From Phascolarctobacterium sp. (GTDB lineage Bacteria; Bacillota; Negativicutes; Acidaminococcales; Acidaminococcaceae), in assembly GCA_034086985.1 (NCBI GenBank), contig JAXDZG010000002.1, forward strand, positions 50,944 through 114,943: a stretch of 64,000 nucleotides of DNA, given 5' to 3'. Position numbers and translations under genes: made by a program. Position 1 is the stretch's first letter. Each line of letters opens with the position of its first letter. Shown here piece by piece: positions 5,164-29,085 of the stretch. The notes under the pieces were generated by a model that was not told where the DNA came from, ran no database searches, and saw nothing but the letters and a program-made list of their open reading frames with translations.

Positions 5164-5362
5164 ATTGGCTGCCTCCTTTCCGTAATAAACAACTCTTTTG
5201 TTTATTATTTTACCACAACTACATAAACAAATAAAGAACATACTTTACCCTAATTAGTTACCTAAAAAATGTATTATCACCTCCCGCATCACCTCTAACC
5301 GGCGTCCTGCGAGCCCCCGAGCGAACTTCGAATGCTCGGCTTATTTTTTACCTTGGAACGTC

Positions 5363-5391
5363 TTGCGGGGGTGGTACAAATGTGCTACAAT
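5363..5391 (+). promoter_or_regulatory. Sigma-A promoter of the polysaccharide locus
   Basis: TTGCGG-N17-TACAAT with extended -10 TG. Confidence 0.55.
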
Positions 5392-5466
5392 ATAGGCGGG
5401 TATAAGCAAATAAAGTAGGCTATTTTTCCCAAAGGTATAAATTATGCGGTGATTGGGGTAGATGTG

Positions 5467-9318: not shown

Positions 9319-9359
9319 ACTGTCTTATCTTATAGATTGTTGTATATGGAGGTCATGTT

Positions 9360-10247: not shown

Positions 10248-10259
10248 GGAGAAAACCAA

Positions 10260-10862
10260 ATGGCACAAATTAAAGTAACTAAATGTCCTATAGAGGGCTT
10301 ATATATTATTGAGCCTGCTGTGCATGGCGATAAACGCGGTTATTTCATGGAGACCTATAACCAAAAGGATATGCAGGAATGCGGTCTCAATATGGTTTTT
10401 GTGCAAGATAATCAAAGCATGAGCGTTAAAGGCGTGTTGCGTGGCTTGCATTTCCAGAAAGAGTTTCCTCAAGGTAAGCTTGTGCGTGTTATTAAAGGTA
10501 GCGTTTTTGATGTGGCTGTGGATTTGCGCGCTGGAAGCAAGACATATGGACAATGGTACGGTGTTGAGTTAACTGAAGAGAATAAGAAGCAATTTTATAT
10601 CAGCGAGGGCTTTGCTCATGGTTTTTTAGTTTTGAGCGATGAGGCAGAGTTCTGCTATAAAGTAACTGATTTTTATCATCCGGGTGATGAGGGCGGTTTA
10701 GCTTGGAATGACCCCGCCATAGGGATTCAATGGCCTCATTTAATTGGTGAGTATCCAGGCAATGCAGATGCTTCTGGCTATAAATTAGCAGATGGTACTG
10801 CGTTAAATCTGAGTGATAAAGATCAGAAATGGGAAACTTTAGAAAATACTTTTAAGTTTTAA
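10260..10862 (+). CDS. rfbC: dTDP-4-dehydrorhamnose 3,5-epimerase (RmlC)
   Basis: DKRGYF, VQDNQS, LRGLHFQ, GFAHGF. Confidence 0.96.
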   Translation: MAQIKVTKCPIEGLYIIEPAVHGDKRGYFMETYNQKDMQECGLNMVFVQDNQSMSVKGVLRGLHFQKEFPQGKLVRVIKGSVFDVAVDLRAGSKTYGQWYGVELTEENKKQFYISEGFAHGFLVLSDEAEFCYKVTDFYHPGDEGGLAWNDPAIGIQWPHLIGEYPGNADASGYKLADGTALNLSDKDQKWETLENTFKF

Positions 10863-10879
10863 TTACTTGAGGTGTAGTA

Positions 10880-11803
10880 ATGAAGGTTTTGGTAACAGGC
10901 GTTAATGGCCAATTAGGTCATGATGTAATGAATGAGTTGGCTAAGCGTGGTATAGAAGGTATTGGCAGTGATTTAAAAGAGAAATACATTGGTGTTGAAG
11001 ATGATTCTGCTGTTACCACCATGCCATATGTGTCTTTAGATATTGTTGATGACGAAGCAGTGATAAAAGTTATTAGGGGTATTATGCCAGATGCTGTTAT
11101 ACATTGTGCGGCATGGACAGCTGTAGATGATGCTGAGATTGATAAAAATAAGGATAAGGTATTAGCTATAAATGCAGTTGGAACAAGTAATATTGCAAAA
11201 GCATGTGTCGCGGTTAGGGCTAAGCTTTTATATGTTAGTACGGACTATGTTTTTAATGGTACCGGTATAAAGCCATGGCAACCTTATGATACAACATGCC
11301 CTGTGAATTTTTACGGCAATAGTAAACTGAAGGCCGAAAAATTTATATCAGAATATATGACTCAATATTACATTGTCAGAACTGCATGGGCTTTTGGTGC
11401 CAATGGCAATAACTTTGTAAAAACTATGCTGAGTCTAGGGAAGAAGTATGACACTTTGCGAGTTGTAGATGATCAGATAGGAACACCTACATATACATAT
11501 GATTTAGCTAGATTATTAGTTGACATGATAGAAACGGATAAATATGGGATTTATCATGCAACAAATGAAGGTGGCTACATATCATGGGCTGACTTTGCAA
11601 AAGAGATATTTAAATTAGCAGGATACTCTACAAAGGTTGTACCAGTTTCAACTTTAGAGTATGGGTTATCGAAGGCTAAAAGACCACTAAATAGTAGATT
11701 GGACAAAAGTTGTCTTTTAAAGAATGGATTCTGTCCATTACCTAGTTGGCAAAACGCATTAGCAAGATATATAAATGATTTGGAGTGTCACAATGTTATC
11801 TAA
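10880..11803 (+). CDS. rfbD: dTDP-4-dehydrorhamnose reductase (RmlD)
   Basis: GVNGQLG, HCAAWTAVD, STDYVF, YGNSK, DDQIGTPT. Confidence 0.93.
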   Translation: MKVLVTGVNGQLGHDVMNELAKRGIEGIGSDLKEKYIGVEDDSAVTTMPYVSLDIVDDEAVIKVIRGIMPDAVIHCAAWTAVDDAEIDKNKDKVLAINAVGTSNIAKACVAVRAKLLYVSTDYVFNGTGIKPWQPYDTTCPVNFYGNSKLKAEKFISEYMTQYYIVRTAWAFGANGNNFVKTMLSLGKKYDTLRVVDDQIGTPTYTYDLARLLVDMIETDKYGIYHATNEGGYISWADFAKEIFKLAGYSTKVVPVSTLEYGLSKAKRPLNSRLDKSCLLKNGFCPLPSWQNALARYINDLECHNVI

Positions 11804-12575
11804 TATCAAAGGGTTTGGATTGTTTAAATACAAGTGGCTTTTACAGGAGTTAATAACTAGGGATTTAAAAATAAAGTATCGCAGATCAGTATTGGGATAC
11901 TTTTGGAGTGTACTAAATCCGTTGCTAATGATGGCTGTATTGACGGTTGTATTCTCTAGCTTTTTTCGTTTTGACATAAAAAACTATCCAGTATATTTAT
12001 TAACAGGTCAATTGTTGTTTTCTTTTTTTTCTGAAGCAACGAATATGGCAATGAGTTCTATTTTGATGGGAGCTTCTTTAATTAAGAAGGTGTATTTACC
12101 TAAGTACATTTTTCCAGTATCAAGAGTGTTTTCTTGTTTTACGACTATGATATTTTCTCTGATAGCTTTGTGTATTGTAATGATTGTAACAGGAGCTGAG
12201 TTTTATTTAACTATTATATTGTTGCCGATAGTGCTAGCATACTTCTTGCTCTTTTCTATAGGGATAAGTTTGGTATTATCTGTAATGGTAATTTTCTTTA
12301 GGGATGTTCAGTATTTGTATGGAGTGTTTTTGACTGCTTTGACATATTTAACTCCCATATTCTATCCCTTATCTATCCTTCCTGAGACAGTAAAGACTTA
12401 CATGGCCTTTAATCCTATGTATATTTATATAGAGCTTTTTAGAAAAATTATGATGTATGGACAGTGGCCTACTGTTGAAGAACATGCTGTTTGTTTAATT
12501 ATAGCGATTGTTTCTTTGGCAATAGGAGTTAATGTTTTTAACAAGCATCAGGATGATTTTATTTTGTATATCTAG
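11793..12575 (+). CDS. wzm: Polysaccharide ABC exporter permease (Wzm/RgpC)
   Basis: RDLKIKYRRSVLGYFWSVLNPL, FFRDVQY, YLTPIFYP, NPM; RBS GGAG before ATG 11793. Confidence 0.93.
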   Translation: MLSNIKGFGLFKYKWLLQELITRDLKIKYRRSVLGYFWSVLNPLLMMAVLTVVFSSFFRFDIKNYPVYLLTGQLLFSFFSEATNMAMSSILMGASLIKKVYLPKYIFPVSRVFSCFTTMIFSLIALCIVMIVTGAEFYLTIILLPIVLAYFLLFSIGISLVLSVMVIFFRDVQYLYGVFLTALTYLTPIFYPLSILPETVKTYMAFNPMYIYIELFRKIMMYGQWPTVEEHAVCLIIAIVSLAIGVNVFNKHQDDFILYI

Positions 12576-12583
12576 AGGTAGAA

Positions 12584-13318
12584 ATGAAGAATGCGATAGA
12601 AGTTCACAATGTTTCTATGAGGTTTAATCTTGCCAGAGAAAGAGTCGATAATCTCAAAGAATGGGTTGTAAGAAAACTAAAATTTAAAGAATCTATAAGT
12701 GTAGACGAGTTCTGGGCGTTGCAGGATATTAGTCTGGAAATTCCTAAAGGAGATTCATTTGCTATTATAGGATCCAATGGTAGTGGTAAAAGTACATTGC
12801 TAAAAATAATAAGTGGTATTTTAAAGCCTACTAAAGGCATTGTAAAAGTTGATGGCAGCATTGCACCATTAATTGAACTAGGGGCTGGATTTGATATAGA
12901 GTTGACTGGTCGAGAGAATATTTTTCTTAACGGAGCAGTTCTAGGTCATAGTAGACGCCTGATGGAGGAAAAATATGATGAAATCATAGACTTTAGTGAA
13001 TTAAAGGCGTTTGAAGATGTCCCGGTTAAGAATTATTCTAGTGGTATGTTGGCAAGATTAGGATTTTCCATTGCTACTATTGTTAAACCAGATATATTAA
13101 TTGTTGATGAGATATTAGCGGTTGGGGATTATGCTTTCCAAGAAAAGTGCAGGAAGAGAATGGAAGAAATGATGAGTGGAGGTTCTACTGTGGTACTTGT
13201 TTCTCATTCGGATGAGGATATAAGACGAGTGTGCAAACATGCTACTTGGATAAACAAGGGGCATAATATGTATGTTGGAGATAGCAATATTGCATTAGAG
13301 AAATATCATAGTTTATAA
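12584..13318 (+). CDS. wzt: Polysaccharide ABC exporter ATPase (Wzt/RgpD), short form
   Basis: GSNGSGKST, YSSGM, LIVDE, VSH; 244 aa. Confidence 0.93.
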   Translation: MKNAIEVHNVSMRFNLARERVDNLKEWVVRKLKFKESISVDEFWALQDISLEIPKGDSFAIIGSNGSGKSTLLKIISGILKPTKGIVKVDGSIAPLIELGAGFDIELTGRENIFLNGAVLGHSRRLMEEKYDEIIDFSELKAFEDVPVKNYSSGMLARLGFSIATIVKPDILIVDEILAVGDYAFQEKCRKRMEEMMSGGSTVVLVSHSDEDIRRVCKHATWINKGHNMYVGDSNIALEKYHSL

Positions 13319-13324
13319 AATGAG

Positions 13325-14164
13325 GTGAGTTTAGTGAGCAAGGTCTTGGTAACGGGTGCAAATGGATACATAGGCAGACATGTAGTAAAAAGATTGTGTG
13401 ATTTAGGTCATAGTGTTATTGCAGCAGATTTTAAGTTTACAGACTTGGATGAGCGAGCCATTACATGTAAAGTCCCTATTTTTAGTGGTGATGAAGATAT
13501 ATATGAACAACTCGGAAGTCCGGAGGTATGTATCCATTTAGCTTGGCGGGATGGTTTTGTTCACAACTCAAATAATCATATGGGTGATTTGTCACATCAT
13601 GTTACGTTCCTTCGTAATATGATGGAGGGAGGACTTAAATCCTTGGCAGTCATGGGAACTATGCATGAGATTGGATATTGGGAAGGGCCAATAGATGAAA
13701 ATACTCCTTGTAAGCCTTTATCTCAATACGGAATTGCAAAAAATGCCTTAAGAGAAAGCATTGTATTATTAGCAGATGAAAAGAATTGTATTCTTCATTG
13801 GTTGAGGGCCTATTATATTACTGGTGATGATCTAAAGGCATCTAGTATATTCTCGAAGATAACTAGAGCTGCACAAGAAGGATTAAAAGAGTTTCCATTT
13901 ACATCTGGAAAGAATAGATACGATTTTATTGATGTAGAAGACCTAGCTAGGATGATCGTTGCTGCAAGTTTACAGGACCAGATAAATGGCATTATTAACG
14001 TATGTAGCGGGAATCCTATTTCGTTGGCTGAAAAAGTAGAAGGGTTTATTGCTGAACATGACTATGACATCAAGTTAGTTTATGGAGCATATCCTGACAG
14101 GCCGTATGATAGTCCTTGTGTATGGGGAGATAATTCAAAAATAAGAGCAATACTGGAAGGGTGA
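13325..14164 (+). CDS. NAD(P)-dependent extended SDR nucleotide-sugar reductase/epimerase
   Basis: TGANGYIG Rossmann motif, YGIAK catalytic YxxxK, RYDFIDVED. Confidence 0.8.
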   Translation: MSLVSKVLVTGANGYIGRHVVKRLCDLGHSVIAADFKFTDLDERAITCKVPIFSGDEDIYEQLGSPEVCIHLAWRDGFVHNSNNHMGDLSHHVTFLRNMMEGGLKSLAVMGTMHEIGYWEGPIDENTPCKPLSQYGIAKNALRESIVLLADEKNCILHWLRAYYITGDDLKASSIFSKITRAAQEGLKEFPFTSGKNRYDFIDVEDLARMIVAASLQDQINGIINVCSGNPISLAEKVEGFIAEHDYDIKLVYGAYPDRPYDSPCVWGDNSKIRAILEG

Positions 14165-14171
14165 CTTTATT

Positions 14172-15386
14172 TTGGAGCCGATTACTCAAAAAGCATACAG
14201 GGTTTTAGTAAAGAAACAAAGTAAATATTATTATTTCTTTAAATATTATTTATTAAACAAAGTGAGAATAAATAAATATAATGCAAAAAGAGTAATAATG
14301 TTTAGGCTTGATCTAATGGGAGATTGTACTATGTTTACAAGCTCTGCTATAGCTATACGGAATATGTATAAAGACAGGCCTATGACAATTGTATGTTTAT
14401 CTGCATGCAAAGCTGTTTTTGAAAGATTAAATATCTTTGACGAAATTATTACAGTTGATTTTAGACCAGAGGCTATTAATTTTTCTTCTTTGGAGAAAGT
14501 TATTTGCAAGATTAGAGAAAAGGAGTATGATTTATTACTTCAACCTCAGCTATCCAAATTTCCTTTAGCAGACATTCTAGCTATAGCCACAAAGTGTAAT
14601 ACTAGAATATCGATCGATACAAAGCCTGACAATAGTTCATGCAAATGGATAAAAATTGCTAATAGGATTTATGATATATTAATAGATTATACAAAAGATA
14701 AAGTTGTTAGCGAATTTCAATATTATGGTGAGTTTATTAGAGGATTAGGGTTTACTGATTATAGGACGAGTAGGCCCTTTTTGCCGTATAATGGACAAAA
14801 CTTCCTTAAGGAAAAGTATTATGTGCTATATCCTTGTGGTTCAGTAAATTGGAAATGGTGGCCTGCCGAGAATTATGCTATGGTAGCAGATTATATATAT
14901 AATAAGACAGGGTATAAGGGAGTGATACTCGGAGTAGAATCAGAAAAGCAGGTGGCTTTAAAGATAATTAATAGTTCTGTGTGCAAAACAGCTGGACTAT
15001 TAGATTTTAGTGGAAAAACTACGGTAAATGATGTAGTAGATTTAATTGGCAATGCTGAATTTGTGATTTCTAATGACACAAGCGGTGTGCATATTGCATC
15101 TGCCACTAATACACCATCTATTGCTTTGATAGGCGGAGGACATTTCGGGAGATTCCTGCCTTATGGATTAGAAAATGTAAAGCCAAGTGATAATTTGCCA
15201 TTTGTTGCATATGAAAAAATGGAATGTTTCAATTGTGATTGGCATTGGCATATAATCAACAAAAGAAATCGTAACTGCCTTGATAACATATTACAAGGGA
15301 ATGTGATTCCTTGTATAGCCAATATAGGGGTTGAAAAGGTAAAATGCCTCGTAGATAAGATTCTTCAGAAAGGCAAGCATAAGTAA
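14172..15386 (+). CDS. GT9 family glycosyltransferase (heptosyltransferase-like)
   Basis: RLDLMGD, K.WP.ENY, VISNDTSGVHIASATNTPSIAL. Confidence 0.85.
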   Translation: MEPITQKAYRVLVKKQSKYYYFFKYYLLNKVRINKYNAKRVIMFRLDLMGDCTMFTSSAIAIRNMYKDRPMTIVCLSACKAVFERLNIFDEIITVDFRPEAINFSSLEKVICKIREKEYDLLLQPQLSKFPLADILAIATKCNTRISIDTKPDNSSCKWIKIANRIYDILIDYTKDKVVSEFQYYGEFIRGLGFTDYRTSRPFLPYNGQNFLKEKYYVLYPCGSVNWKWWPAENYAMVADYIYNKTGYKGVILGVESEKQVALKIINSSVCKTAGLLDFSGKTTVNDVVDLIGNAEFVISNDTSGVHIASATNTPSIALIGGGHFGRFLPYGLENVKPSDNLPFVAYEKMECFNCDWHWHIINKRNRNCLDNILQGNVIPCIANIGVEKVKCLVDKILQKGKHK

Positions 15387-15387
15387 A

Positions 15388-17325
15388 ATGATAGAAAGAA
15401 ATTACAAAAGACTATGCATATACTTTATTTATGATAAGAATGGAATAATTGATGATTACATAGTATATCAATTAAAAGAGTTAAGGAAAGATGTGGATTT
15501 TATTTTTTGTGTTGTAAATGGGGAACTTACTGATATTAGTGAAAGTAAAATCAAAGGTATTGTTGATTGTGTCTATAAAAGGGAAAATGTAGGAAATGAT
15601 ATCGGTGCATACAAAGCAGCCATAGAAAAATTACGATGGGAAAACATCAGAGAATATGATGAATTAGTAATAATGAATTTTACATGTTTTGGGCCAATTT
15701 ATCCATTTAGAGAAGTATTTGAATGGTCTGAAAATCAGGATGTAGATTTTTGGGGTTTAACCTTGGATGAAAAAAGCGATTGGCTTGAGAGCAAGAAATA
15801 CTTACATTATAATAAATCTCGTATTCATTATCAATCTAATTTTCTCGTTCTGAGGAGGAGATTGTTAGAGTCTAAATTGATAGAAGACTTTTTTTATGAT
15901 ATTCCAAAAGACTCAAAGTATATCGAATCAGGATGTTTTTATGAGTACGCTTTTCCTGGCTTTTTTGAAGAGCATGGATATAAAGGAGCTGTTTATTGTA
16001 ACGAGAAAGATGATTTAAACTATCCGTTACTTTATAATCCTGTGAAATTAATGAGAAAGTATAGGATGCCATTAGTGAAAAAGCGTAGCTTCTTTCATCA
16101 TTATACAGATTTTTTGAATAATTCTGGCGGCGAGCCTACTGCTAATCTTATAGATTTCATAAAAGATAACACTAATTACGATATGGGCCTGATTTGGCAA
16201 TCTATTTTAAGAACATGTTCATTATCAGATGTGGTTAGGGTAGCTCAGTTAAATAGAGTGATTACTAGCAAATTTCTAGTAAGTGATAAGAGTTTCAATA
16301 GTAAAGTTGGAATTATTTTTCATACATATTATGAGAACTTATTTGAAGAAGATAGCGATTATTTGGTTAATCTTCCAGAGAATATAGATCTGCTGATAAC
16401 TACAGATACTGTATCCAAAAAGGAGACAATAGAGAATATACTATCTTCGAAGGATATCAATGGTTCAGTAAAAGTTGTAACTAATAGAGGTAGAGATGTA
16501 TCTGCACTATTAGTTGGATGTTATGATTTTGTAATGAATCATGATTTAATATGCTTCGTACATGATAAAAAAACACCTCAATTGAAACCCTATAGTGCTG
16601 GTAGATCTTGGGCTTATAAATTAAAAGAGAATACTATTGGTAATAGGTTGTTCATACAAAACGTAGTTTCGCTTTTTGAGAATGAACCTAATTTAGGTAT
16701 TGCATTTCCATCGTATCCAAATCATAATGTGTTCTCAACAGTTGTTGGAACAGGTTGGACAGGTAATTTTGATTCTACTAAGAATTTACTCGATAAATTC
16801 GGAGTAAAAGTCAAGATTAATGAGCGTACATTATGTGTTGCGCCTCTAGGTACATGCTTCTGGTTTAGGACTGATGCGTTAAAAAAAGTGTTTAATGGAG
16901 TGGGCGGACAAAAGTGGAGTTATGATGATTTTCCAGCCGAGCCCAACAAAGTCGATAATACTATACTTCATGCAATAGAGCGATCGTTAGCTTATTTTGC
17001 TCAGGATGCAGGGTTTTATCCAGTATATTTATATAATGATAAATATACTGAGATAGAATTAACTAACTTGGAGTTTAATAAGACTGGCTCTACAGAGATG
17101 AGGGCATGGGTTGACAAATTAGCAATGGATGCAATAGGTGTGGACAGCACTTGTCAAACAAATGAAGAAGTATTGAACAGATATGAAGGAAAAATCAACT
17201 ATGGCATTAGACAAAGTCTTTTGCATTTAGCCTTTGCCGTTAGGTGTAAATATCCTACGTTTTGGAGTATATTATTACCAATAAGAAGAATTGGACAAAA
17301 ATTATTAAAAATAAAAACAAAATAA
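15388..17325 (+). CDS. Rhamnan synthesis protein F (RgpF) family, two-domain
   Basis: RENVGNDIGAYK, N.TCFGP, DFWG, HYQS.F, second domain NRGRDV, VHDKK, GTCFWFR, LHAIER. Confidence 0.88.
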   Translation: MIERNYKRLCIYFIYDKNGIIDDYIVYQLKELRKDVDFIFCVVNGELTDISESKIKGIVDCVYKRENVGNDIGAYKAAIEKLRWENIREYDELVIMNFTCFGPIYPFREVFEWSENQDVDFWGLTLDEKSDWLESKKYLHYNKSRIHYQSNFLVLRRRLLESKLIEDFFYDIPKDSKYIESGCFYEYAFPGFFEEHGYKGAVYCNEKDDLNYPLLYNPVKLMRKYRMPLVKKRSFFHHYTDFLNNSGGEPTANLIDFIKDNTNYDMGLIWQSILRTCSLSDVVRVAQLNRVITSKFLVSDKSFNSKVGIIFHTYYENLFEEDSDYLVNLPENIDLLITTDTVSKKETIENILSSKDINGSVKVVTNRGRDVSALLVGCYDFVMNHDLICFVHDKKTPQLKPYSAGRSWAYKLKENTIGNRLFIQNVVSLFENEPNLGIAFPSYPNHNVFSTVVGTGWTGNFDSTKNLLDKFGVKVKINERTLCVAPLGTCFWFRTDALKKVFNGVGGQKWSYDDFPAEPNKVDNTILHAIERSLAYFAQDAGFYPVYLYNDKYTEIELTNLEFNKTGSTEMRAWVDKLAMDAIGVDSTCQTNEEVLNRYEGKINYGIRQSLLHLAFAVRCKYPTFWSILLPIRRIGQKLLKIKTK

Positions 17326-17363
17326 AATATTCTAATTTATTATGTAAATGGAGGATAAATACA

Positions 17364-18410
17364 ATGCGGGGGGGAAAAAGGCTTTTAGAACTAGAAGTAA
17401 TAAGAATATTTGCTTGCCTCTGTATTTTGATAATACATTTTAATGCGCAAGTATCTGGATGGAGTCAGTTCGGAAGGTTTGAATATCCTAATCATTTAAT
17501 CCCAAACTTTTATTTTGATGTTTATTTGGGTGAGATAGGTGTGGGTTTGTTCTTTATTCTATCTGGTGCCGGCCTATACAATGGATACAATTTTAATATT
17601 TTAACAATGGGTAGCATAAAATCTTTTTATGTAAAAAGAGCTAAATCTTTATATCCATATTTTTGGGTGGCATATATATTTGCAAGTTTTGCAAGTTTCT
17701 TGTGGTACAAAGGGATGAGCATGAGTAAGCCAATTGTTATTGTAACGAGCATTCTGGGAATAGATGGATATATGGGGATGTTGTTTAACAGATATAGCGG
17801 CTTCTATCAAGTAGGGGAATGGTTTTTAGGATGTATAATAATCATATACCTATTTTATCCTTTTTTGTCATTTTCCTTAAATAAAGCTCCTATCATAACA
17901 TGTTTGGCGGTTGTATTACTGTATTTTTCTTTTATAGGCAAATGGCAATACCATTGGTTTTTCTTTCAGTTTCCTTATATTCTGTTCGGATATTTTTATA
18001 TGAAATGGTTTCGGCATAGAAATAGTATAGAGTTAATACTTGGAGCATTTATGTTATCTTTACTTAGGATAGCATTTGGTCCTTCAATGCACTATTACTC
18101 GAAATCTATTGTAACATGTATTGTGTTGTTTATATTGATTACATCCATATATAATGCCTTGGATGCAAAATACAATATTACTAACTCTCCAAAAATATCA
18201 ATATTCATTCAAAAAGTTGCTATTATGACGTATCCTGCTTTTTTAATACATCATAAACTGATTACAATGATGGCTCCGATGTTTAATTTACAAGTTTTTC
18301 CATACAGATATACAGTAATGTTGTTTTTGGTATATATTTCTATTGTTAGTTATCTAGCCTTTAATCTATATGGATTTACAAATACTATTGTGAAAAAAAT
18401 AACGATTTAG
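17364..18410 (+). CDS. Acyltransferase_3 family membrane O-acyltransferase
   Basis: ELEVIRIFA...IIHF, GVGLFFILSG, FYVKRAKSLYP, GEWFL; about 10 hydrophobic segments; RBS GGAGG before ATG 17364. Confidence 0.85.
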   Translation: MRGGKRLLELEVIRIFACLCILIIHFNAQVSGWSQFGRFEYPNHLIPNFYFDVYLGEIGVGLFFILSGAGLYNGYNFNILTMGSIKSFYVKRAKSLYPYFWVAYIFASFASFLWYKGMSMSKPIVIVTSILGIDGYMGMLFNRYSGFYQVGEWFLGCIIIIYLFYPFLSFSLNKAPIITCLAVVLLYFSFIGKWQYHWFFFQFPYILFGYFYMKWFRHRNSIELILGAFMLSLLRIAFGPSMHYYSKSIVTCIVLFILITSIYNALDAKYNITNSPKISIFIQKVAIMTYPAFLIHHKLITMMAPMFNLQVFPYRYTVMLFLVYISIVSYLAFNLYGFTNTIVKKITI

Positions 18411-18452
18411 CAAATGTTGCCCTATTCATATTGTTAACCAAGGAGGTTTATC

Positions 18453-19016
18453 ATGGAAAATATTATTAAACAACGCTTCTCGGACCACCTGGAGGTGGCT
18501 CAAGCGGTAATGAATAGTGAGATTTTGGGCCAGATTGAGACCGTTGCTACAGCTATCAAAAAAGCCTTGGCTGAGGGTCACAAAGTCCTCTTTTGTGGTA
18601 ACGGCGGCAGTGCGGCGGATAGCCAGCATTTGGCTGCGGAATTCGTAGGTCGTTTTCAAAAGGAGCGCTGCGGCCTGCCTGCGATTGCACTTACGGTTGA
18701 CACTTCTATTTTGACTGCTGTGGGCAATGACTACGGCTTCGACAAGGTTTTTGTGCGCCAGGTGGAAGCGTTGGCGCAACCAGGTGATGTTTTAGTGGGT
18801 ATTTCCACCAGCGGCAACAGCCCCAATGTGGTAGCAGCTATTGAACTGGCTAAGACCAAGGGGATGTACTGCGTAGGCATGACCGCAGCTGGTGGCGGTA
18901 AAATGGCTTCCTTATGCGATGCATGCATTGCTGTGCCGGCCAAGATTACGGCCCGCGCTCAGGAGATGCATATTTTGATAGGCCACATTTTATGTGAGCT
19001 AGTGGATGGTGAATAA
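18453..19016 (+). CDS. gmhA: D-sedoheptulose-7-phosphate isomerase
   Basis: [38 protein letters not shown]. Confidence 0.96.
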
Positions 19017-20496
19017 TTTGGGCTCAGCTGTAATAACCTTTTTAGCAGAGCAAATTAAAAATGTGCGCATTGCCGTGCTTGGTGATGTGATGCTGGATAG
19101 ATATTTCCATGGCGAGGTAAAGCGCATCTCCCCGGAGGCGCCGGTGCCGGTGACGAAAATTAATCGCATTAAGTCGGTGCTGGGCGGTGCTGCCAATGTG
19201 GCAGCAAATCTGGCTCATTTGGAATGCCAGGTTTTCATGGGCGGTGTGACCGGTGATGATGAAAACCGTGTGCTCTTAGAAAAGCTCATGGATGCGGCTG
19301 GCATTAACCACAGTGGCTTGGTAAAAAGCGCTCGTCGTAAAACTATTACGAAGCTGCGCGTGCTAGGCGGTAATCAGCAAATGCTGCGTCTTGATTTCGA
19401 GGAAACCGGCGATTTATATCCTGAAGAAATTGTGGAGCTGCGCCAATGGCTGGCTACTCTTTTGGATCAGGGCTTGGATGGCATTATCGTCTCCGACTAC
19501 GCTAAGGGCGTGTGCTCCGACGTTTTTTGCCAATGGGTGATTAATCAGGCCCATGCGTATAATATCCCTGTCCTCATCGATCCCAAGGGCGCGGACTGGA
19601 CTAAGTATCGTGGCTGCGATTTTATCACTCCCAATTTGAAGGAAATGTGCGAGGCAGCTGGCTGCACTCGCGATAATGAGGATGGCGCGGTAGTGGAAAT
19701 GGCCCGCGCTGCCAAGGATAAATACCACATTAAAAATGTGGTGGTTACCCGCAGCGAGCGGGGCATGTCCCTCGTCAACGACAGCGAGGTGCTGCACAGT
19801 CCGGCCACAGCCATCGAGGTTTTTGATGTGTCGGGCGCAGGCGATACGGTGGCAGCTACGCTGCTGGCCGGCGTGGCCGGCAAGCTGGAGCTGGCGGACG
19901 CCATCTACATGGCCAACCGAGCCGCCGGCATCGTGGTGGCGAAGGTTGGCACCTATCCCGTGCATCGGGACGAGCTGCTGAAGGATTTGCTCACCGAGGA
20001 GCGCAAGCAGGGCCGTGGCTATAGAACACTGAGCTGGCAGGAAATCGCTTCCTTAGCCGCAACATGGAAGGCCTGCGGTGAGAAAATCGTCTTTACTAAT
20101 GGTTGCTTTGATATCCTTCATGTGGGTCATGTAACCTATTTGGAGAAGGCCCGTAACTTAGGCAAGCACTTGATTGTGGGCCTGAACACGGATGCTTCCG
20201 TGCGTCGTCTGAAGGGCGAAACCCGTCCGCTAGTGCACGAGATGGACAGAGCAAGAGTGCTGGCAGCCTTGGCTTGCGTGGATGCGGTGGTGCTGTTTGA
20301 CCAAGATACGCCTACAGAATTAATCGAAAAAATTCGCCCCGATATTCTGGTCAAGGGCGGGGATTATCGTCCCGATCAGGTGGCAGGCCGTGAATATGCG
20401 GGCGAGGTACGCATTATAGAGTTTGAAGATGGTTATTCCACCACTGGAGTAGTAGAAAAGATTGCCAACATGGTGAAGCGAGGAGATATATTATGA
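19006..20496 (+). CDS. hldE: Bifunctional heptose-7-P kinase / heptose-1-P adenylyltransferase
   Basis: [30 protein letters not shown] (kinase); [19 protein letters not shown] (nucleotidyltransferase). Confidence 0.95.
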
Positions 20497-21512
20497 CTAT
20501 TATCGTAACCGGTGGTGCCGGATTTATTGGTTCAAATTTTATATTTCACATGCTGGAGAAGTATCCAGAATATCGCATTATCTGCTTGGATAAGCTGACC
20601 TATGCAGGTAATTTGTCTACTTTAGAGAGCGTTATGGATAACTCGAATTTCCGCTTTGTAAAAGCAGATATCTGTGATAGAGAAGCAGTGTATAAGCTTT
20701 TTGAAGAAGAGCATCCTGATATTGTAGTTAATTTCGCAGCTGAAAGCCATGTGGACCGTTCTATTGAAGACCCTGGGATTTTCTTAGAGACCAATATTAA
20801 AGGTACTGCTGTGCTGATGGATGCTTGCAGAAAGTACGGCATTAAGCGTTATCATCAAGTTTCTACAGATGAAGTATATGGTGATTTGCCTTTGGATAGA
20901 CCAGATTTGTTCTTCACTGAGGAAACTCCTATTCATACTAGCAGCCCGTATTCTTCGTCCAAAGCTGGTGCAGATTTGTTGGTTATGGCGTATCATCGTA
21001 CTTATGGCTTGCCTGTGACTATTTCCCGTTGCAGCAATAACTATGGGCCCTATCACTTCCCTGAGAAGCTCATTCCCTTAATGATTGCTAATGCGTTGGC
21101 AGATAAACCTTTACCGGTATATGGTGAGGGGATTAATGTGCGTGACTGGCTCTATGTTGAGGATCACTGTAAGGCCATTGATTTGATTATTCATAAGGGT
21201 AGAGTAGGAGAAGTTTATAACATCGGTGGGCATAACGAGATGCGTAACATTGATATTGTGAAGCTGATTTGCAAGGAATTAGGCAAGCCTGAAAGCTTGA
21301 TTACCTATGTAACTGACCGCAAAGGTCATGATATGAGATATGCAATTGATCCGACTAAGATTCATAATGAATTAGGTTGGCTGCCTGAGACCAAATTCGC
21401 TGATGGCATTAAGAAAACCATTAAATGGTATCTTGAGAACAAAAAATGGTGGCAGGATATCATTAGTGGTGAATATCAGAATTACTATCAAAAAATGTAC
21501 GGTAATAGATGA
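20493..21512 (+). CDS. rfbB: dTDP-glucose 4,6-dehydratase (RmlB)
   Basis: GGAGFIGS, FAAESHVDRSI, STDEVYG, YSSSK, PEKLIP, RDWLYVEDH. Confidence 0.97.
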   Translation: MTIIVTGGAGFIGSNFIFHMLEKYPEYRIICLDKLTYAGNLSTLESVMDNSNFRFVKADICDREAVYKLFEEEHPDIVVNFAAESHVDRSIEDPGIFLETNIKGTAVLMDACRKYGIKRYHQVSTDEVYGDLPLDRPDLFFTEETPIHTSSPYSSSKAGADLLVMAYHRTYGLPVTISRCSNNYGPYHFPEKLIPLMIANALADKPLPVYGEGINVRDWLYVEDHCKAIDLIIHKGRVGEVYNIGGHNEMRNIDIVKLICKELGKPESLITYVTDRKGHDMRYAIDPTKIHNELGWLPETKFADGIKKTIKWYLENKKWWQDIISGEYQNYYQKMYGNR

Positions 21513-21573: not shown

Positions 21574-21792
21574 TTACTGAATGGCTAGCTCCTTCATCAG
21601 CTCTTTACGATAAGTCTTATCTGTGATTACGCGGTCAACATCCTCATTTCTACCCATAGATTTAAGCTTGGTAAGTAAGGCAGCGAAGCGGTCTTCACCA
21701 ATTGCTAAACCACGAGCTTCACCAGTAGCTTCACCTTCGTTATAGCCTTCGGCTCTACTAATCTTCCGAACGAGATCTAAAGTTTTACCCAT
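21574..21792 (-). CDS. Candidate in-frame intragenic small protein (RpnS-like antitoxin, 72 aa)
   Basis: AAAGGAGAUG SD-like sequence 8 nt before in-frame ATG (MGKTLDLVRK...) inside the rpn ORF. Confidence 0.5.
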   Translation of the reverse strand: MGKTLDLVRKISRAEGYNEGEATGEARGLAIGEDRFAALLTKLKSMGRNEDVDRVITDKTYRKELMKELAIQ

Positions 21793-22425
21793 AGTCGTGT
21801 CATCTCCTTTAACTTTTCGCATAGCATCAGCCAAGACAGGATAGTGCATCTCTTCTGGCTTAGTACATTTAAAATCGCTAATTAATTTACCAATATCGTC
21901 ATTGCCGATATAGTTGTTATTTACATAGAGAATATGAGCCCTGTCCTCAAAAGGAATGCCTAGATTGGTGACAGTGCGTTCTATCGGATAGAGAGGCAAA
22001 TTGCGCTTCCATCTATCGCCAGTGAAAAAGATTACATATGTTGTAGGCAAAGCCTTAAAGTCAGCCTTGATGGGCAGATTATGTACATCAATAGAGCTGC
22101 TGTAATAGCGAGCACGTTCAGGGGTAGCACCGCTAGTCAGGTTTTGCACTTCAACATTATAGATGTTATTGTTATCATCCTTAGCGAGAATATCTAAACG
22201 CACAGACCTATAGCCATGATTCCTTAAGGGATACTCAGTTTTTGTGCTCTCAACAGTGAGCTTCTTGTCCTTTAAAAGTACATTGAGCAGAAGCTGGGAG
22301 CAAGCCTTTTCTTTAAAGACTTTTTTCAAGCAATGATGGTCTGTGAGCTTAGTCTCTTGGGCAATCTTTTTGGTAATAGCCTTGCGAACCTTTTTGTCGG
22401 ACAGGTCAAGTTTGATCATTTTCAT
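21574..22425 (-). CDS. Rpn family (PDDEXK_2) recombination-promoting nuclease / putative anti-phage toxin
   Basis: DHHCLKKVF, VRLDILAKD, NVEVQ, RARYYSS.ID, C-terminal EG..EG...G repeats. Confidence 0.88.
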   Translation of the reverse strand: MKMIKLDLSDKKVRKAITKKIAQETKLTDHHCLKKVFKEKACSQLLLNVLLKDKKLTVESTKTEYPLRNHGYRSVRLDILAKDDNNNIYNVEVQNLTSGATPERARYYSSSIDVHNLPIKADFKALPTTYVIFFTGDRWKRNLPLYPIERTVTNLGIPFEDRAHILYVNNNYIGNDDIGKLISDFKCTKPEEMHYPVLADAMRKVKGDDTTMGKTLDLVRKISRAEGYNEGEATGEARGLAIGEDRFAALLTKLKSMGRNEDVDRVITDKTYRKELMKELAIQ

Positions 22426-22590
22426 TATAACACGATCCTTTGCAATTTACTAGCGCTAGGGGTGGATTTTTGTAGGTGCCCGACCTACTATAGTCATAAT
22501 AGCACAAATAGTCAGATAAATCAAGCCTTAATAAGAAAATTTTTATATATTAGAAAATTACAAGAGCGTTTTGCGCTTCGAGGTACTACC

Positions 22591-25500
22591 ATGTCGATTT
22601 TTGACAGCTTCACCAGGAGGAACAGTTTAATAAAGACACTGCGCTTCAGGCTAGAGCCCATGTTTGGGACTAGTGAGCAGCTGGCAAAAATAGGCGTGCT
22701 GGAGCGCGATCAAGAGCGCAGCGAGAACTGGGAAACAGTGCGCGCAGTGCTGCGCCGCGTGGATGCGTCGTTTGTAGAAAAGGCGCTCACAGAAGAAGTG
22801 GATTTGGACTGGCGGCCGCTAGCAACAGCATTAAAAGCAAAGAATGCTGTATACGAAAATGAAAAAAATAATAGTAATGAGATAGAGCTGTCACAAGATG
22901 AAAGTGGCAAGAAAGCTTTGCTACAGTCAGAAAAGAATAGGGCTGAGATTAGCAAAGAGCTCGTAAAGCAGCAGGCAGAGATGCGCAAAGCAGTGGCGAA
23001 GCTGCTGACAAAGCATGGCGATTATAAGAACATTACCAATCCGACCAAAGCCATAAAAATGGCGGCGGAGGCAGTACAGAGTGATGCTGAAGCGCGAGCG
23101 GTGGCCCAGTATCTGCGCTTTACTACAGTGTTAACAGATTATTTTGCCCATAAAAAAGCCTATTTTGGCCATGAAGTGAGAAGGACAACAATCGCTTACC
23201 GCATCGTGCACGTAAATTTTCCTATCTATCTGGAAAACTTGCGCTTAATGAAGCAATATGCTCAGGCTGGGTTGGACTTACAAAATAAATTTATCTTTAC
23301 TTATTTAGAAATTAATGGCTACAACAAATGCTTGGTGCAGAGTCAAATCGATAGCTATAACCAAGCTGTTGGCCAAATCAATAAACAGCTGCGGCGGCTA
23401 TATGCCGAGCACAAGCTACCGGAAACTTTAAAAGGTGTGCCACTAAAGCTCAAGGCGCTGCAAAAGCAAGTGCTGAGCGTGGGCGAGGAAAAGCCCATAG
23501 AGTTTGCTAAATACGCGGACATGCAAGCAGCAGTGCAGGGCTTACAGGAAGCGCTGGCGCAACGGTTCAGTGGCTTAGAGCAAGCCTTCAGTCAATGTGA
23601 GGGAGAGCTGCAAGATGAGTACGCAGCTAAGCAAGAGACCGTAACAGAAGCCTCCAAGGCGCTGCTTTTTAGAGAGCAAGAGGTAGCGAGTATCGTCTCC
23701 ATTAAGGATTATCTAACGGCAGTGCTAGCCTTAAGGCGTTTCGTGAAAGGAGTGCTTCGTGAAGAGGTACAGCAATATAAAGGGCAAGCTCAGAGCTCTG
23801 AGAATGCTCTAGTAGCTGAAGATGCTTCGCAAGCTGATGCTGAGGCCAAGCAAAGGCTTTCTCTCGCCTGCAGTGAAGCCTGGGAAATATTAGCTAGTGT
23901 ACCTCAGCTATACGCCAAGGTGCGCAATTACTTAACCCGCAAGCCTTATAAGCAGGAGAAAATTAGACTCTTTTTTGACTGCGCTGCCTTTGGTAAGGGC
24001 TGGGATGTGAATAAAGAGGCCGCTTATTTAGTAAACTTGTTTAGGCGGGACAGTCATTACTATCTTGGCATCAGGCGCCAGGGAGCGAAAATAGATTTCG
24101 ATGCCATAGCGACTAAATGTACCGAGCAGGAGCCATGCTACGAAAAGATGGTCTACAAAGCCTTTGATTTCATCAAGGGCATGCCCGCTGTAGTCTTTTC
24201 CAAAATGATTTTGCAAAAATTTGTAGACGGTGCTAGTGAAGTGGTGCTAGAGGGTGAGCAATTCAGCCAGCCTTTAGTAGTAACCAGAGCGGATTTTGAA
24301 CAAAAATACTATGTAGAGAATGGTAAGCTGCGGGAGCGCGAGCCTGAGGATGTGCCCTATCTCAAGCAGTATCTAACTAAAACAGGGGATGAGGCAGGCT
24401 ATAAAGCGGCAGTGTCCCAGCGCATAGAGCTAGCCAAGCGTTTTATAAAAGCCTATAAAACCTTCGCCTTTTTTGATATGTCCAAGCTGCGAGCCACCCA
24501 AGACTATGACTCTTGGATAGAATTCATTACCCATGTGAACGAATTTACCTATGGCTTAAGCTGGCAAAAAAATTCCGAAGCAAGCCTAAAGCAGTTAGTG
24601 GAAAAGGGTGACTTGTTTCTATTTCGCTTGGAGAACCGCGACTTTATGCGCGATGCCAGCGATGAAGTAAGTGGGGACGAGCAAACCCAGCTGTGGCGCG
24701 CCTTGTTTAGCCAGCTAAATCAAGAAGATCGCATCCTGAAGCTTTTGGGCGGTGTGGAAGTGTACTACCGTCCGGCTTCCGCGCCTGCCAAGGTAAGTCA
24801 CAAGCAGGGCAGTGTTATCGTCAACAAAATAGACAGCGAGCATAATCCCCTGCCAGCGGAGCTCGTGCGTAATATTAGTCACTATTTAAACGGCAAAACT
24901 AAAAAGCTCTTACCAGAAGCGGCTCAGCTCATGGCCCAAGACAAAGTAAAATGGAAACAAGCGGCTCAGGATATCATCAAGGATAAACGCTATACCCAGG
25001 ACCAAATGCTAGCCCATTTTCCCATAGCCATCAACTATCGCTGTGCTAGCAACGATTATAGCTTCAACAGGGATGTGCGAGAGTTGCTGCAGGGGAATAC
25101 CGCAGTCAATATTTTGGGACTGCATTTGGGTGGCGACAATTTGGCTGAGGCAGTCATTCTTGACCAAAACGGCAAGCAGCTTTATGCCAAGGCTTATAAT
25201 CAATTCAATAATTATAATTACTACCAAGCTCTTGTATTGCGAGATGAAGCAAGGAAGCAGGCCCAACGAAACTGGCTGCAACAGCAAAAGATTAAGAATC
25301 TTCGCCAAGGCTTTATGGCAGCCCTTACTAATGAAGTGTGCAAGCTCATTTTAAAGTACAACGCCGTGGTTGTGCTGGAGGACTTCAGTAAGAACAAGGG
25401 TAGTAGGGGAGCGGCGCCCAAGCTCTATATGCAGTTTGCGCTGAATCTACTGCATAAGCTTAATTACTTAGTACTCAAGGAACGCGAGCCCATAGAGCCA

Positions 25501-25764
25501 GGAGGACTGCTGCAGGGCTATCAGCTTGCTCCCAAGGTAGTAAGCCTAGCGGGCTTTGCCAACCAAATTGGCTGCGTTCTTTTCGCCTTACCTAGCAATG
25601 GGGAGGGCGAGCCTGAGGACATGTCCGAGGCCTATTTATTGGCCTTAAAGGGCTGCCTCATGGTGCAGCGCATCCACCAAGCCAAGAGCTTGGATAAAGT
25701 AGATTTTATGCTAAAGCAAAAACAGTGGCTTGGCTTCCTCAAGGAGCGAGACTTCAGCTCCTAA
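22591..25764 (+). CDS. cas12a: Cas12a (Cpf1)-like protein, predicted nuclease-dead and lacking the Nuc domain; orphan, 1057 aa
   Basis: MSIFDSF...SLIKTLRFRLEP (WED-I), IAYRIVHVNFPIYLEN (REC1), YAKVRNYLTRKPY, GWDVNKE, LFLFRLENRDF, IIKDKRYT..HFPIAINY, NAVVVLE, GGLLQGYQL, AYLLALKG are colinear with AsCas12a; RBS GAGG precedes ATG 22591. Confidence 0.93.
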   Translation: MSIFDSFTRRNSLIKTLRFRLEPMFGTSEQLAKIGVLERDQERSENWETVRAVLRRVDASFVEKALTEEVDLDWRPLATALKAKNAVYENEKNNSNEIELSQDESGKKALLQSEKNRAEISKELVKQQAEMRKAVAKLLTKHGDYKNITNPTKAIKMAAEAVQSDAEARAVAQYLRFTTVLTDYFAHKKAYFGHEVRRTTIAYRIVHVNFPIYLENLRLMKQYAQAGLDLQNKFIFTYLEINGYNKCLVQSQIDSYNQAVGQINKQLRRLYAEHKLPETLKGVPLKLKALQKQVLSVGEEKPIEFAKYADMQAAVQGLQEALAQRFSGLEQAFSQCEGELQDEYAAKQETVTEASKALLFREQEVASIVSIKDYLTAVLALRRFVKGVLREEVQQYKGQAQSSENALVAEDASQADAEAKQRLSLACSEAWEILASVPQLYAKVRNYLTRKPYKQEKIRLFFDCAAFGKGWDVNKEAAYLVNLFRRDSHYYLGIRRQGAKIDFDAIATKCTEQEPCYEKMVYKAFDFIKGMPAVVFSKMILQKFVDGASEVVLEGEQFSQPLVVTRADFEQKYYVENGKLREREPEDVPYLKQYLTKTGDEAGYKAAVSQRIELAKRFIKAYKTFAFFDMSKLRATQDYDSWIEFITHVNEFTYGLSWQKNSEASLKQLVEKGDLFLFRLENRDFMRDASDEVSGDEQTQLWRALFSQLNQEDRILKLLGGVEVYYRPASAPAKVSHKQGSVIVNKIDSEHNPLPAELVRNISHYLNGKTKKLLPEAAQLMAQDKVKWKQAAQDIIKDKRYTQDQMLAHFPIAINYRCASNDYSFNRDVRELLQGNTAVNILGLHLGGDNLAEAVILDQNGKQLYAKAYNQFNNYNYYQALVLRDEARKQAQRNWLQQQKIKNLRQGFMAALTNEVCKLILKYNAVVVLEDFSKNKGSRGAAPKLYMQFALNLLHKLNYLVLKEREPIEPGGLLQGYQLAPKVVSLAGFANQIGCVLFALPSNGEGEPEDMSEAYLLALKGCLMVQRIHQAKSLDKVDFMLKQKQWLGFLKERDFSS

Positions 25765-25774
25765 ACAATATGTC

Positions 25775-25818
25775 AATACCTACTAGTTAGGCGAAGTATG
25801 TGTGTTAAAATTGTAGGC
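25775..25818 (+). CRISPR. Single degenerate Cas12a-repeat-like hairpin plus possible spacer (mini crRNA candidate)
   Basis: AATACCTACTAGTTAGGC vs canonical handle AATTTCTACTNNNGTAGAT, with compensatory T-A to C-G stem change; 11 nt after the cas12a stop; not a multi-repeat array. Confidence 0.45.
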
Positions 25819-25875
25819 TTGGATGCTTAAACAAAATGCTTTAAGACGGCCGCGAAAATTGTTCATAAAGACCAA

Positions 25876-25917
25876 TAAAAAACCGCTACACCCCAGATGA
25901 GTGTAGCGGTAATTTTT
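25876..25917. terminator. Bidirectional terminator between cas12a-like and fba
   Basis: ACCGCTACAC / GTGTAGCGGT stem with A-run before and T-run after. Confidence 0.8.
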
Positions 25918-28128: not shown

Positions 28129-29085
28129 ATGCAATGGAAAAGGATTGCCGGTGCTTGCTTGTGCGTAGCAGCGTTAGCTTTGGCGGGCTGCGGCGGTGGC
28201 CAGAATAAGCAGGCTGTGGATAGCAGCAAGGCTTATTTATCCTTAAAGGATGTGGCAGGACGCCAGGTAGTGCTGGCCAAGAAGCCGGAGCGTGTGGTGA
28301 GCCTGAGTCCGTCCTATTTGGGCATGATCGAGGCCGTAGGCGGTAAAATAGTGGGCCGCGCCTCCTCTAAGGTGGGCACCATCCCTGAGTCCATGAAAAG
28401 CGTGCCGGAAATTGGCTTTGTCTTTAATATTAATATGGAAAGTCTTGTGGCTCTGCGTCCCGATTTAGTACTGGCAGGACGCAATCAGCACGAAAAGTTT
28501 GTGCCGCTTTTAGAGTCCAACAAGATTAATGTCATTGAATTTGATGCCAAAACCTATGACGAAGTGAAGCAAACGGTGAAGGTTTTGGGCGATATTTATG
28601 GCAATTCGGACAAGGCAAAGGCAGAAAACGAACTTTTGGATAAGGAGATTAACGCCATTAAGGCTAAGCTGCCCAAGGATAAAAAGCGCATTGTGATTAT
28701 GCATGCTACGGCTAGCAGTGTCACCGTAGAAGGCTCTCGCAGCATTGCGGGCTGTGTCAGCGATATTTTGGGCTTTGAGAATGTGGCTGCGGCTGCCTTA
28801 AAGGGTAAGTCCGATAAAACTCCCTACAGCATGGAAAGCTTGGTAGGTCAAAATCCTGACTTGATTTTCATTACCTCCATGGGCAAGGCGGAGGAAATTG
28901 AAAACCGCCTGCGCAAGGATTTCAAAAAGAACCCTGCTTGGAACAGCCTCACTGCAGTGCAGCAGGGCAAGGTTTACGTGCTTCCGGAGCGCCTGTTTTT
29001 GATTAACCCCGGCCTGCGCTATCCGGAGGCTGTGGCCTACATGGCTAAGCAGGTCTACCCAGAGGTTTTTAAAGATGGCAAATAA
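28129..29085 (+). CDS. Fe-siderophore/cobalamin-type ABC substrate-binding lipoprotein
   Basis: Lipobox LAGC; KPERVVSL, NMESLVALRPDLV, NPDLIF, P.LR.PEA. Confidence 0.88.
   Translation: MQWKRIAGACLCVAALALAGCGGGQNKQAVDSSKAYLSLKDVAGRQVVLAKKPERVVSLSPSYLGMIEAVGGKIVGRASSKVGTIPESMKSVPEIGFVFNINMESLVALRPDLVLAGRNQHEKFVPLLESNKINVIEFDAKTYDEVKQTVKVLGDIYGNSDKAKAENELLDKEINAIKAKLPKDKKRIVIMHATASSVTVEGSRSIAGCVSDILGFENVAAAALKGKSDKTPYSMESLVGQNPDLIFITSMGKAEEIENRLRKDFKKNPAWNSLTAVQQGKVYVLPERLFLINPGLRYPEAVAYMAKQVYPEVFKDGK

Follow-up and report, generated by a model that had tools for sequence, protein, structure and literature searches.

What becomes of a type V-A CRISPR effector whose array, adaptation genes and nuclease residues are gone? 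The question is raised by a gene for a Cas12a homologue at positions 22591–25764 (+ strand) of a 64,000-nucleotide stretch of Phascolarctobacterium sp. DNA (contig JAXDZG010000002.1, positions 50,944 to 114,943), the whole of which is referred to here as the window. An earlier note, made from the letters of the window alone, had read the gene as domesticated into a non-cutting RNA-guided binder and not as decaying. Our analysis points to an answer of the same kind, and adds to it a putative small RNA encoded directly downstream of the effector. We consider it moderately probable that a type V-A system has here been reduced to a nuclease-dead effector and a single CreR-like guide, which together bind without cutting. 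CreR is a degenerate mini-CRISPR that guides the Cas12a of Moraxella to repress a promoter via partial complementarity (10.1101/2023.03.10.532045).

The protein: domains, catalytic residues and selection

The open reading frame (ORF) is intact over 1057 codons. Its start is placed at 22591 because the ribosome-binding site (RBS) GAGG (22580–22583, + strand), within a conserved GAGGTAC..CCATGTC start region, and the N-terminus MSIF..FTRRNSLIKTL (MSIFDSFTRRNSLIKTL) are conserved across relatives, the former in all loci, even with unrelated upstream DNA, and the latter in every relative. Starting from the in-frame ATG at 22333 would lengthen the ORF into the divergent neighbouring gene. The product scores 453 bits with NCBIfam cas_Cpf1 (TIGR04330), above the cutoff of 300. 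Pfam detects RuvC_1 and REC1 and no NUC, and phmmer against the PDB returned Cas12a chains only (E value 1.8e-108). An AlphaFold2 model, too uncertain for residue-level conclusions and used for fold assignment alone, retrieved only Cas12a structures in Foldseek, with AsCas12a at the top (E value 7e-32). The protein is about 30% identical to AsCas12a and homologous to it over the whole length; together with the family match, this alignment bears out the intact and colinear frame described earlier.

A search of 5.8 billion proteins retrieved 24 proteins of about 1000 aa with 45–100% identity, and the next matches were canonical Cas12a (about 1270 aa, about 30% identity). At least 20 intact relatives span 45–90% identity. 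The clade members that are named at NCBI belong to Phascolarctobacterium metagenome-assembled genomes (MAGs), and several genomes hold two paralogues.

Residues were mapped in native AsCas12a numbering (PDB 5B43 as an example structure). In RuvC-I, the motif is ILGLHLGGDNL in the window protein vs IIGIDRGERNL in AsCas12a, and D908 is represented by His845 (codon 25123–25125, + strand), as the earlier note had read by eye; the position is occupied by His, Arg or Tyr in the clade, never by Asp. The note had also stated that E993 of RuvC-II and D1263 of RuvC-III are kept. This is correct for the glutamate, Glu930 (codon 25378–25380, + strand), which is invariant in the clade. The aspartate, Asp1010 (codon 25618–25620, + strand), is present in the window protein, but its position varies in the family (D, G, K, A and others), and because it is unconserved RuvC-III is effectively lost too. 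With P1001 aligned to P1066 of AsCas12a and D1010 to D1263, the 196-aa Nuc domain (residues 1067–1262) is replaced by the 8-residue linker SNGEGEPE (25594–25617, + strand). The deletion is common to all members of a 20-sequence alignment, and the Pfam NUC family (PF18510) is absent from 24 of 24 clade members. About 75 aa are missing at the start of REC2 relative to canonical Cas12a; REC1 and PI are still present, as is REC2 in its shortened form. The short linker in place of Nuc and the shortened REC had both been described correctly. Judged by its sequence, with the RuvC-I aspartate gone, the RuvC-III aspartate unconserved and Nuc deleted, the protein has lost the capacity to cut DNA.

Other functional sites are preserved. 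The alignment to AsCas12a places the precursor CRISPR RNA (pre-crRNA) RNase residues in a WED-III segment at 24799–24981 (+ strand). They are H737 (H800 of AsCas12a; 24799–24801, + strand), which is His in 16 of 20 sequences and Tyr in the other four, and K746 (K809; 24826–24828, + strand) and K797 (K860; 24979–24981, + strand), both invariant in the clade alignment. From this residue conservation, the RNase site of the WED domain appears to be retained. Also conserved in the clade are the handle-binding motif YYRPAS, the equivalent of K548 and the motif GWDVNKE. The PAM-reading lysine K607 of the AsCas12a motif MIPKC (PAM, protospacer-adjacent motif) is replaced by Ala533 (codon 24187–24189, + strand), and the clade has A, G or S at this position throughout, vs K or R in canonical Cas12a and in the sister clade introduced below.

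Might the gene simply be a functionless, decaying remnant of a type V-A system? In favour of this view, the locus has lost its array and adaptation genes along with the nuclease residues and Nuc, and some copies are broken. Against it stand more than 20 full-length copies at 45–90% identity, nonsynonymous to synonymous rate ratios (dN/dS) of 0.13–0.21 (Nei–Gojobori, six pairs), which demonstrate purifying selection, the same clean deletion in all copies, and an adjacent RNA element whose conservation exceeds that of the coding sequence. The comparison of homologues and the dN/dS check, which the earlier note had suggested, reveal no pattern of random decay. The intact clade, its shared losses, the RNase residues and the linked crRNA-like gene support the note's reading of domestication instead; decay is scarcely credible, and we regard it as effectively refuted.

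The gene is more diverged than its surroundings. Between the window gene and the related locus L010 (1719–4889), synonymous divergence (dS) is 0.44, vs 0.05–0.06 for the flanking PDDEXK_2, fba and rluA genes and 0.23 for a fourth flanking gene (28129–29085), so that its synonymous sites are about 7-fold more diverged than those of three of four flanking genes. It is also mosaic, codons 1–100 being near-identical and codons 800–1000 differing at about 24% of nucleotides, which indicates allele shuffling anchored on conserved ends.

The RNA element and its origin

The earlier note had reported no repeat array. Neither the 64-kb window, which was searched with Tandem Repeats Finder, another repeat finder, a k-mer scan and Rfam, nor any of 23 related loci contains one; what had been overlooked is a single crRNA-like element of repeat origin. 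This element, non-coding, conserved and about 80 nt long, lies downstream of the stop codon, at 25775–25851, and has no family in Rfam, whether by gathering threshold or by E value. The gap between stop codon and element is 10–25 nt in all loci but one, where it is about 56 nt. It is located 3′ of every copy with a sequenced 3′ end (20 loci and the window), one per gene, with no further copy elsewhere in about 360 kb of related DNA, which demonstrates a strict linkage of gene and RNA. The element is better conserved than the protein: its first 32 nt are near-invariant among proteins that are only 45% identical, and all 80 of 80 positions are identical between the window and L010 despite the gene dS of 0.44. 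The sequence past ...GACGGCC drifts freely.

The 5′ part (25775–25793, + strand) begins 10 nt past the stop and is a degenerate solitary repeat, or handle (AATACCTACTAGTTAGGCG), with the form AAUACCUACUAGUUAGGCG across loci. A 4-bp CCUA/UAGG hairpin is possible within it, and the variants of L019 and L022 stay paired by wobble; this Cas12a-like hairpin is compatible with all variants. An inner stem proposed by RNAalifold (U7-A24..U10-A21) was rejected, as it is broken by L019 and L021. The handle is followed by a fixed, spacer-like, A/U-rich single-stranded stretch (AAGTATGTGTGTTAAAATTGTA; 25794–25815, + strand), which is 19–31 nt long in relatives and whose first 13 nt are conserved as AAGUAUGUGUAUU (AAGTATGTGTATT). 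The 3′ part is a two-tier hairpin (25816–25851, + strand) with an outer GGCU/GGCC and an inner CUUAAA/UUUAAG helix, for which compensatory variants were found (GACCG/CGGUC, UCUUA/UAAGA, ACUUAA/UUAAGU and GUCUUAAA/UUUAAGAC); it is possibly what is left of a second repeat. A bidirectional intrinsic terminator at 25882–25910 closes the unit of gene and RNA and is shared with the convergent aldolase gene. In several other loci, the printed flanks, read by eye, show sequences past the element that resemble hairpins or terminators.

The ancestry of the element is revealed by a sister clade. When 1.84 billion representatives were searched with a profile, P0037 scored 948 bits and P0038 716 bits, and other Cas12a at most 587 bits; P0037 is the closest full-length relative (36% identity). 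The group formed by P0037 and P0186–P0188 has a D-to-N change in RuvC-I (ILGINRGERNL) and keeps Nuc, the full REC2, the RuvC-III aspartate and the PAM lysine. The P0186 group is plasmid-borne, on a contig of about 105 kb (L024; also L025) that encodes Rep3, MobA/MobL, ParA, DnaB and HipA and on which cas1, cas2 and cas4 were not found. The Cas12a gene (L024 10001–13789) is accompanied, about 190 nt downstream, by an array (L024 13971–14400) of seven repeats (CTCTAATAACTAAAGTAATATCTACTATTGTAGAC) with diverse 26–27-nt spacers. It looks like a natural, plasmid-borne type V-A system for binding only. The handle shares 11–12 nt with the sister repeat, with a predicted RNA stem that is backed by wobble-type variation only. 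The invariant AATA[TC]CTACTA is common to the 5′ end of the element and to the 3′ handle of the sister repeat. The element is therefore identified as a degenerate V-A repeat that stands alone, next to which come a fixed spacer and then a second repeat in strongly degenerated form. The two clades thus have in common an inactivated RuvC-I, the lack of adaptation genes and a matching repeat handle; the sister clade differs in its Nuc domain, full REC2, RuvC-III aspartate, PAM lysine, real seven-repeat array and location on a plasmid of about 105 kb.

A further resemblance was observed immediately 5′ of the element. At 25755–25774, and at the equivalent places of L001 and L002, there is a likeness between the sister repeat's 5′ half (CTCTAATAA...) and the last codons and stop (CTCCTAA...) taken together with the 10-nt gap. 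All 36 nt of the repeat may have been preserved, in overlap with the stop codon; as the stretch is rich in A and T, the likeness could be due to chance.

The conservation of this RNA also bears on whether it is a guide at all. It might instead be a structural cofactor or a substrate of a protein that binds or processes RNA, for example in autoregulation at its own mRNA 3′ end or in RNA targeting, and recognizes no DNA. The loss of the PAM-reading lysine fits this idea, as do the RNase residues, which form the best conserved functional site, and the start of the spacer, which is as conserved as the handle and for which an AUAC/GUGU pairing with the 5′ end of the element fits all variants. However, the protein keeps REC1 and PI, which hold the RNA–DNA duplex and the PAM duplex, along with the shortened REC2, under purifying selection over about 600 aa; the K548 equivalent and GWDVNKE are conserved, and the 19–31-nt single-stranded stretch between handle and hairpin has the length of a guide. 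We therefore regard a role confined to RNA as improbable.

Genomic setting and the search for a target

The neighbourhood provides no partner that would define the function. No cas1-like ORF was found in the window, where the Pfam-scanned ORFs of at least 200 aa are housekeeping or polysaccharide biosynthesis genes and several other ORFs were identified solely via their L010 orthologues, and no cas genes were found in the neighbourhoods of the related loci. The absence of cas1, cas2 and cas4 from the 64 kb, as stated in the earlier note, is thus upheld by the Pfam scans, and the loci of relatives that were examined hold neither array nor cas genes. The genes tnsB, tnsC and tniQ, a trait of Cas12k and CRISPR-associated transposons (CAST), are missing from every neighbourhood examined. 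Nor is there a conserved sigma-factor partner, as only the P0017 subclade sits near a sigma gene. The constant unit consists of RBS, ORF, RNA and terminator only, and its neighbours vary.

A frequent neighbour is a divergent PDDEXK_2 (Rpn-like) nuclease gene (21574–22425, − strand, in the window), which lies upstream in three subclades and as a remnant in a fourth. It raises the possibility that DNA cutting persists, either through a non-canonical active site or through a nuclease such as PDDEXK_2 recruited in trans. The PD-(D/E)XK neighbour itself and the invariant E930 are compatible with such activity. Against it, the Nuc domain needed for substrate loading is gone, PDDEXK_2 is missing beside many intact copies, and there is no alternative conserved triad, since the RuvC-I position varies between H, R and Y and RuvC-III is unconserved. 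Persistent cutting is accordingly very improbable. As an obligatory partner, PDDEXK_2 was rejected, because intact close relatives lack it (L015 vs L016).

The remaining upstream neighbours suggest another role. They include ParE/Phd, BrnTA, HEPN/MNT and RelB modules, AAA_15/AAA_21-RloB genes and an integron-cassette-like pair. The RNA-protein complex might serve in conflict or defence, either by silencing, with its fixed guide, a conserved site on a plasmid, phage or other mobile element, or by controlling adjacent genes for toxins or nucleases as part of an addiction circuit like CreTA. Several observations agree with this: the variable islands with divergent toxin–antitoxin modules, PDDEXK_2, AAA_15/AAA_21-RloB and integron-cassette-like genes; the finding that all PDDEXK_2 matches in 315 kb adjoin the dead-Cas12a gene; the mosaic gene and its high dS relative to three of four flanks, which are typical of conflict genes; the pseudogenised copies, among which the broken copy in L002 is the one lacking PDDEXK_2; and the closest relatives, which are plasmid-borne nuclease-dead Cas12a with arrays and without adaptation genes. 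Conversely, a spacer conserved across paralogues of 45% identity favours a conserved cellular target over fast-evolving invaders. In addition, phage, plasmid and viral collections yielded no protospacer, complementarity to neighbouring promoters does not exceed chance, PDDEXK_2 is dispensable beside intact relatives as described above, and no copy of the gene was found on viral contigs. On balance a conflict role appears unlikely.

A polysaccharide or O-antigen cluster immediately precedes the gene in five contexts (the window, L003, L016, L017 and L019). In the window, the gene follows a 16-kb, low-GC (32–42%), co-directional polysaccharide/lipopolysaccharide operon (5449–21512) that includes genes for a WbaP-like sugar transferase, GT2 glycosyltransferases, a heptosyltransferase, RgpF, an acyltransferase, HldE and RfbB.

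Other features of the surroundings are recorded here for completeness. The divergent intergenic region contains a perfect hairpin (GTAGGTGCCCGACCTAC; 22472–22488), of which L001 has a version with one compensatory change (GTAGGG...CCCTAC). As a crRNA this hairpin was rejected, since it is confined to the closest relatives and falls within the predicted promoter or 5′ untranslated region (UTR) of the PDDEXK_2 gene. The P0017 subclade (L013 4200–7941, and L014) is associated with an apparent mobile element encoding an SNF2 helicase, a Peptidase_M23 protein and a 751-aa protein; past the neighbours of the gene, L013 and L014 contain a sigma-70 gene which is apparently split by an IS605-type TnpB, in the order Sigma70_r2/r3 ORF, tnpB, Sigma70_r4 ORF. 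Directly upstream of the copy in L003 is a two-gene cassette (8263–9728), one gene encoding an 'Integron cassette protein' (M1E1E6-like) and the other a product without a family. Two defence-like genes lie further away in the window, one encoding an AAA-ATPase_like and PDDEXK_9 protein (3574–5241, − strand), divergent from the polysaccharide operon, and one encoding a Schlafen AlbA_2 and HATPase_c_4 protein (58922–60427, + strand), beside addB.

A target of the fixed spacer was sought in about 360 kb of Phascolarctobacterium DNA, and the results count against our interpretation. Matches remained at chance level in the window (16-mers, up to 2 mismatches), in all 25 related loci (16–22-mers, up to 6 mismatches), in comparisons of longest common substrings with upstream regions (with shuffles), in 8–9-nt seed searches, and in searches of upstream regions for a 13-nt seed (up to 3 mismatches) or TTN plus an 11-nt seed. 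The upstream regions comprised 500–600 nt from 15–18 loci. A blastn search with the element gave no spacer match above chance in PLSDB plasmids or INPHARED phages, and scans of IMG/VR for element, spacer and protein returned nothing relevant. Other points weigh on the same side. Given that the PAM-reading lysine is gone, PAM-dependent unwinding of double-stranded DNA may have changed or disappeared. The conserved 'spacer' might instead have a scaffold role. The AlphaFold2 model is of moderate quality (predicted local distance difference test score, pLDDT, 66.6; predicted template modelling score, pTM, 0.40). The L002 copy (455–3469) is split into two ORFs (455–1591 and 1856–3469), and many short ORF fragments occur on long contigs (90% clusters). 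The L002 split may represent a pseudogene or an MAG assembly error; L002 is the only copy that shares the rfbB-adjacent position of the window without PDDEXK_2, and its RNA element is still intact. Because some copies are broken, the gene is accessory and dispensable in some strains. A non-cutting RNA-guided binder, as proposed in the earlier note, is therefore kept as the best reading of the sequence, qualified by the failure to find a target and by the change of K607 to A, G or S.

Three individual matches were examined and set aside. The best one, at −218 in L016 (16 of 22 positions), is absent from the homologous intergenic region of L011. A match in the gut phage MT836022 looks like chance and has no TTTV PAM. 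A likeness to the promoter of the polysaccharide operon (window, about 5380–5430; TAGGCG...GTAGGCT) was attributed to chance, as nhmmer was silent at E < 50 and an ungapped R-loop is incompatible with it.

Proposed function and relation to known systems

How might such a pair work? In the mechanism that we propose, gene and RNA would be co-transcribed, and the RNase site of the WED domain would cut just 5′ of the handle, as its conserved residues suggest, after which the protein would retain the RNA. By analogy with CreR-Cas12a, TldR, Cas12m and Cas12c, the resulting ribonucleoprotein (RNP) would bind, without cutting, a conserved nucleic-acid site that matches the spacer start AAGUAUGUGUAUU, and the bound RNP would block or modulate transcription in trans, in a manner resembling CRISPR interference. 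A more specific version is put forward tentatively, as we hold it to be possible but somewhat short of an even chance: a dead, Nuc-less Cas12a of about 1000 aa excises its own guide from the 3′ UTR of its mRNA and acts as a chromosomal transcription factor for one conserved Phascolarctobacterium locus. As the gene recurs at the ends of O-antigen and polysaccharide operons, the target locus may be a surface-polysaccharide gene.

If correct, the proposal would give TldR and dCas12f their first counterpart derived from Cas12a, and would describe the end state in the evolution of a CreR-type regulatory circuit in which the immune function has been lost. Active Cas12a, the plasmid-borne form with RuvC-I D-to-N and an array, and the chromosomal Nuc-less form with a fixed CreR-like guide would constitute a natural series. 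This series makes testable how an immune effector turns into a regulator, and whether Nuc, part of REC2 and the PAM lysine are dispensable for binding. The protein would further offer a dCas12a scaffold that nature has minimised, with a size about 20% below that of engineered versions, and the locus suggests that a commensal common in the human gut has a regulatory or conflict system not recognised before.

Relative to Cas12a as represented by AsCas12a, the protein has the same order of WED, REC1, REC2, PI, RuvC and bridge helix and the same RNase residues, and the 5′ handle of its RNA descends from a V-A repeat. It differs in the loss of the D-E-D triad and of the PAM-reading lysine, the deletion of Nuc, a REC2 shorter by about 75 aa, and the lack of an array and of cas1, cas2 and cas4; its 3′ UTR encodes one guide-like RNA, which is fixed. 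Substitution of the RuvC-I aspartate alone is common among full-length Cas12a, as it was found in 15 of about 200 retrieved sequences, including the sister-clade proteins P0037, P0038 and P0186–P0188; other RuvC-I-substituted sequences (with N, S, T, I, H or K) were P0097, P0110, P0125, P0141, P0143, P0170, P0183, P0208, P0210, P0220 and P0221. These may correspond to the large Cas12a branches with altered catalytic sites that are mentioned in one sentence by Altae-Tran et al. 2023 (PMC10691335). That sentence is the nearest text we found; full-text literature searches turned up no account of a Cas12a clade that lacks Nuc or has a single guide. The statement of the earlier note that no nuclease-dead, Nuc-less Cas12a clade has been described thus holds within the searchable literature, and what is new is the Nuc-less form combined with a single fixed guide.

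The closest parallel to the RNA is CreR of CreR/CreA systems, including the V-A CreR of Moraxella bovoculi. Both have the architecture PsiR1-PsiS-PsiR2 with a PsiR1 that resembles the cognate repeat, and in both the RNA would guide Cas12a to bind and not to cut, which is presumed here by analogy. CreR occurs alongside a complete and active CRISPR-Cas12a system; it is located upstream of cas12a, and its target is the promoter of that gene. Unlike CreR, the RNA described here is the sole guide, is located downstream of a dead effector and has no above-chance match in the 500–600 nt upstream.

The closest parallel to the protein is TldR, with which it shares an inactivated RuvC, the loss of a C-terminal module that supports the nuclease, an adjacent single fixed guide gene, the absence of an array and, presumably, RNA-guided repression. 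TldR descends directly from TnpB, has about 400 aa, uses an omega-RNA with a 3′ guide, is often phage-borne, and targets the promoters of fliC and oppA. In contrast, the present protein is nested within Cas12a, has about 1000 aa and a crRNA-type 5′ handle, and is chromosomal. The dCas12f-sigmaE activators (PMC13472631) have likewise lost nuclease and array and kept a repeat-derived guide, but they originate from Cas12f and form an obligatory operon with rpoE, of which no counterpart is conserved here. Cas12k (type V-K CAST), Cas12m and Cas12c are Cas12 proteins naturally free of DNase activity which also act by binding. Cas12k depends on Tn7 genes and a tracrRNA, and Cas12m and Cas12c keep arrays and function in immunity, features that are absent from the present loci. 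Exaptation to regulators is therefore known for TnpB (TldR) and Cas12f (dCas12f-sigmaE), and for Cas12k, and is undescribed for Cas12a, the best-studied type V enzyme; nuclease-dead Cas12 and TnpB derivatives with fixed guides are already familiar from these systems, and the Phascolarctobacterium clade is the first of them in the Cas12a lineage.

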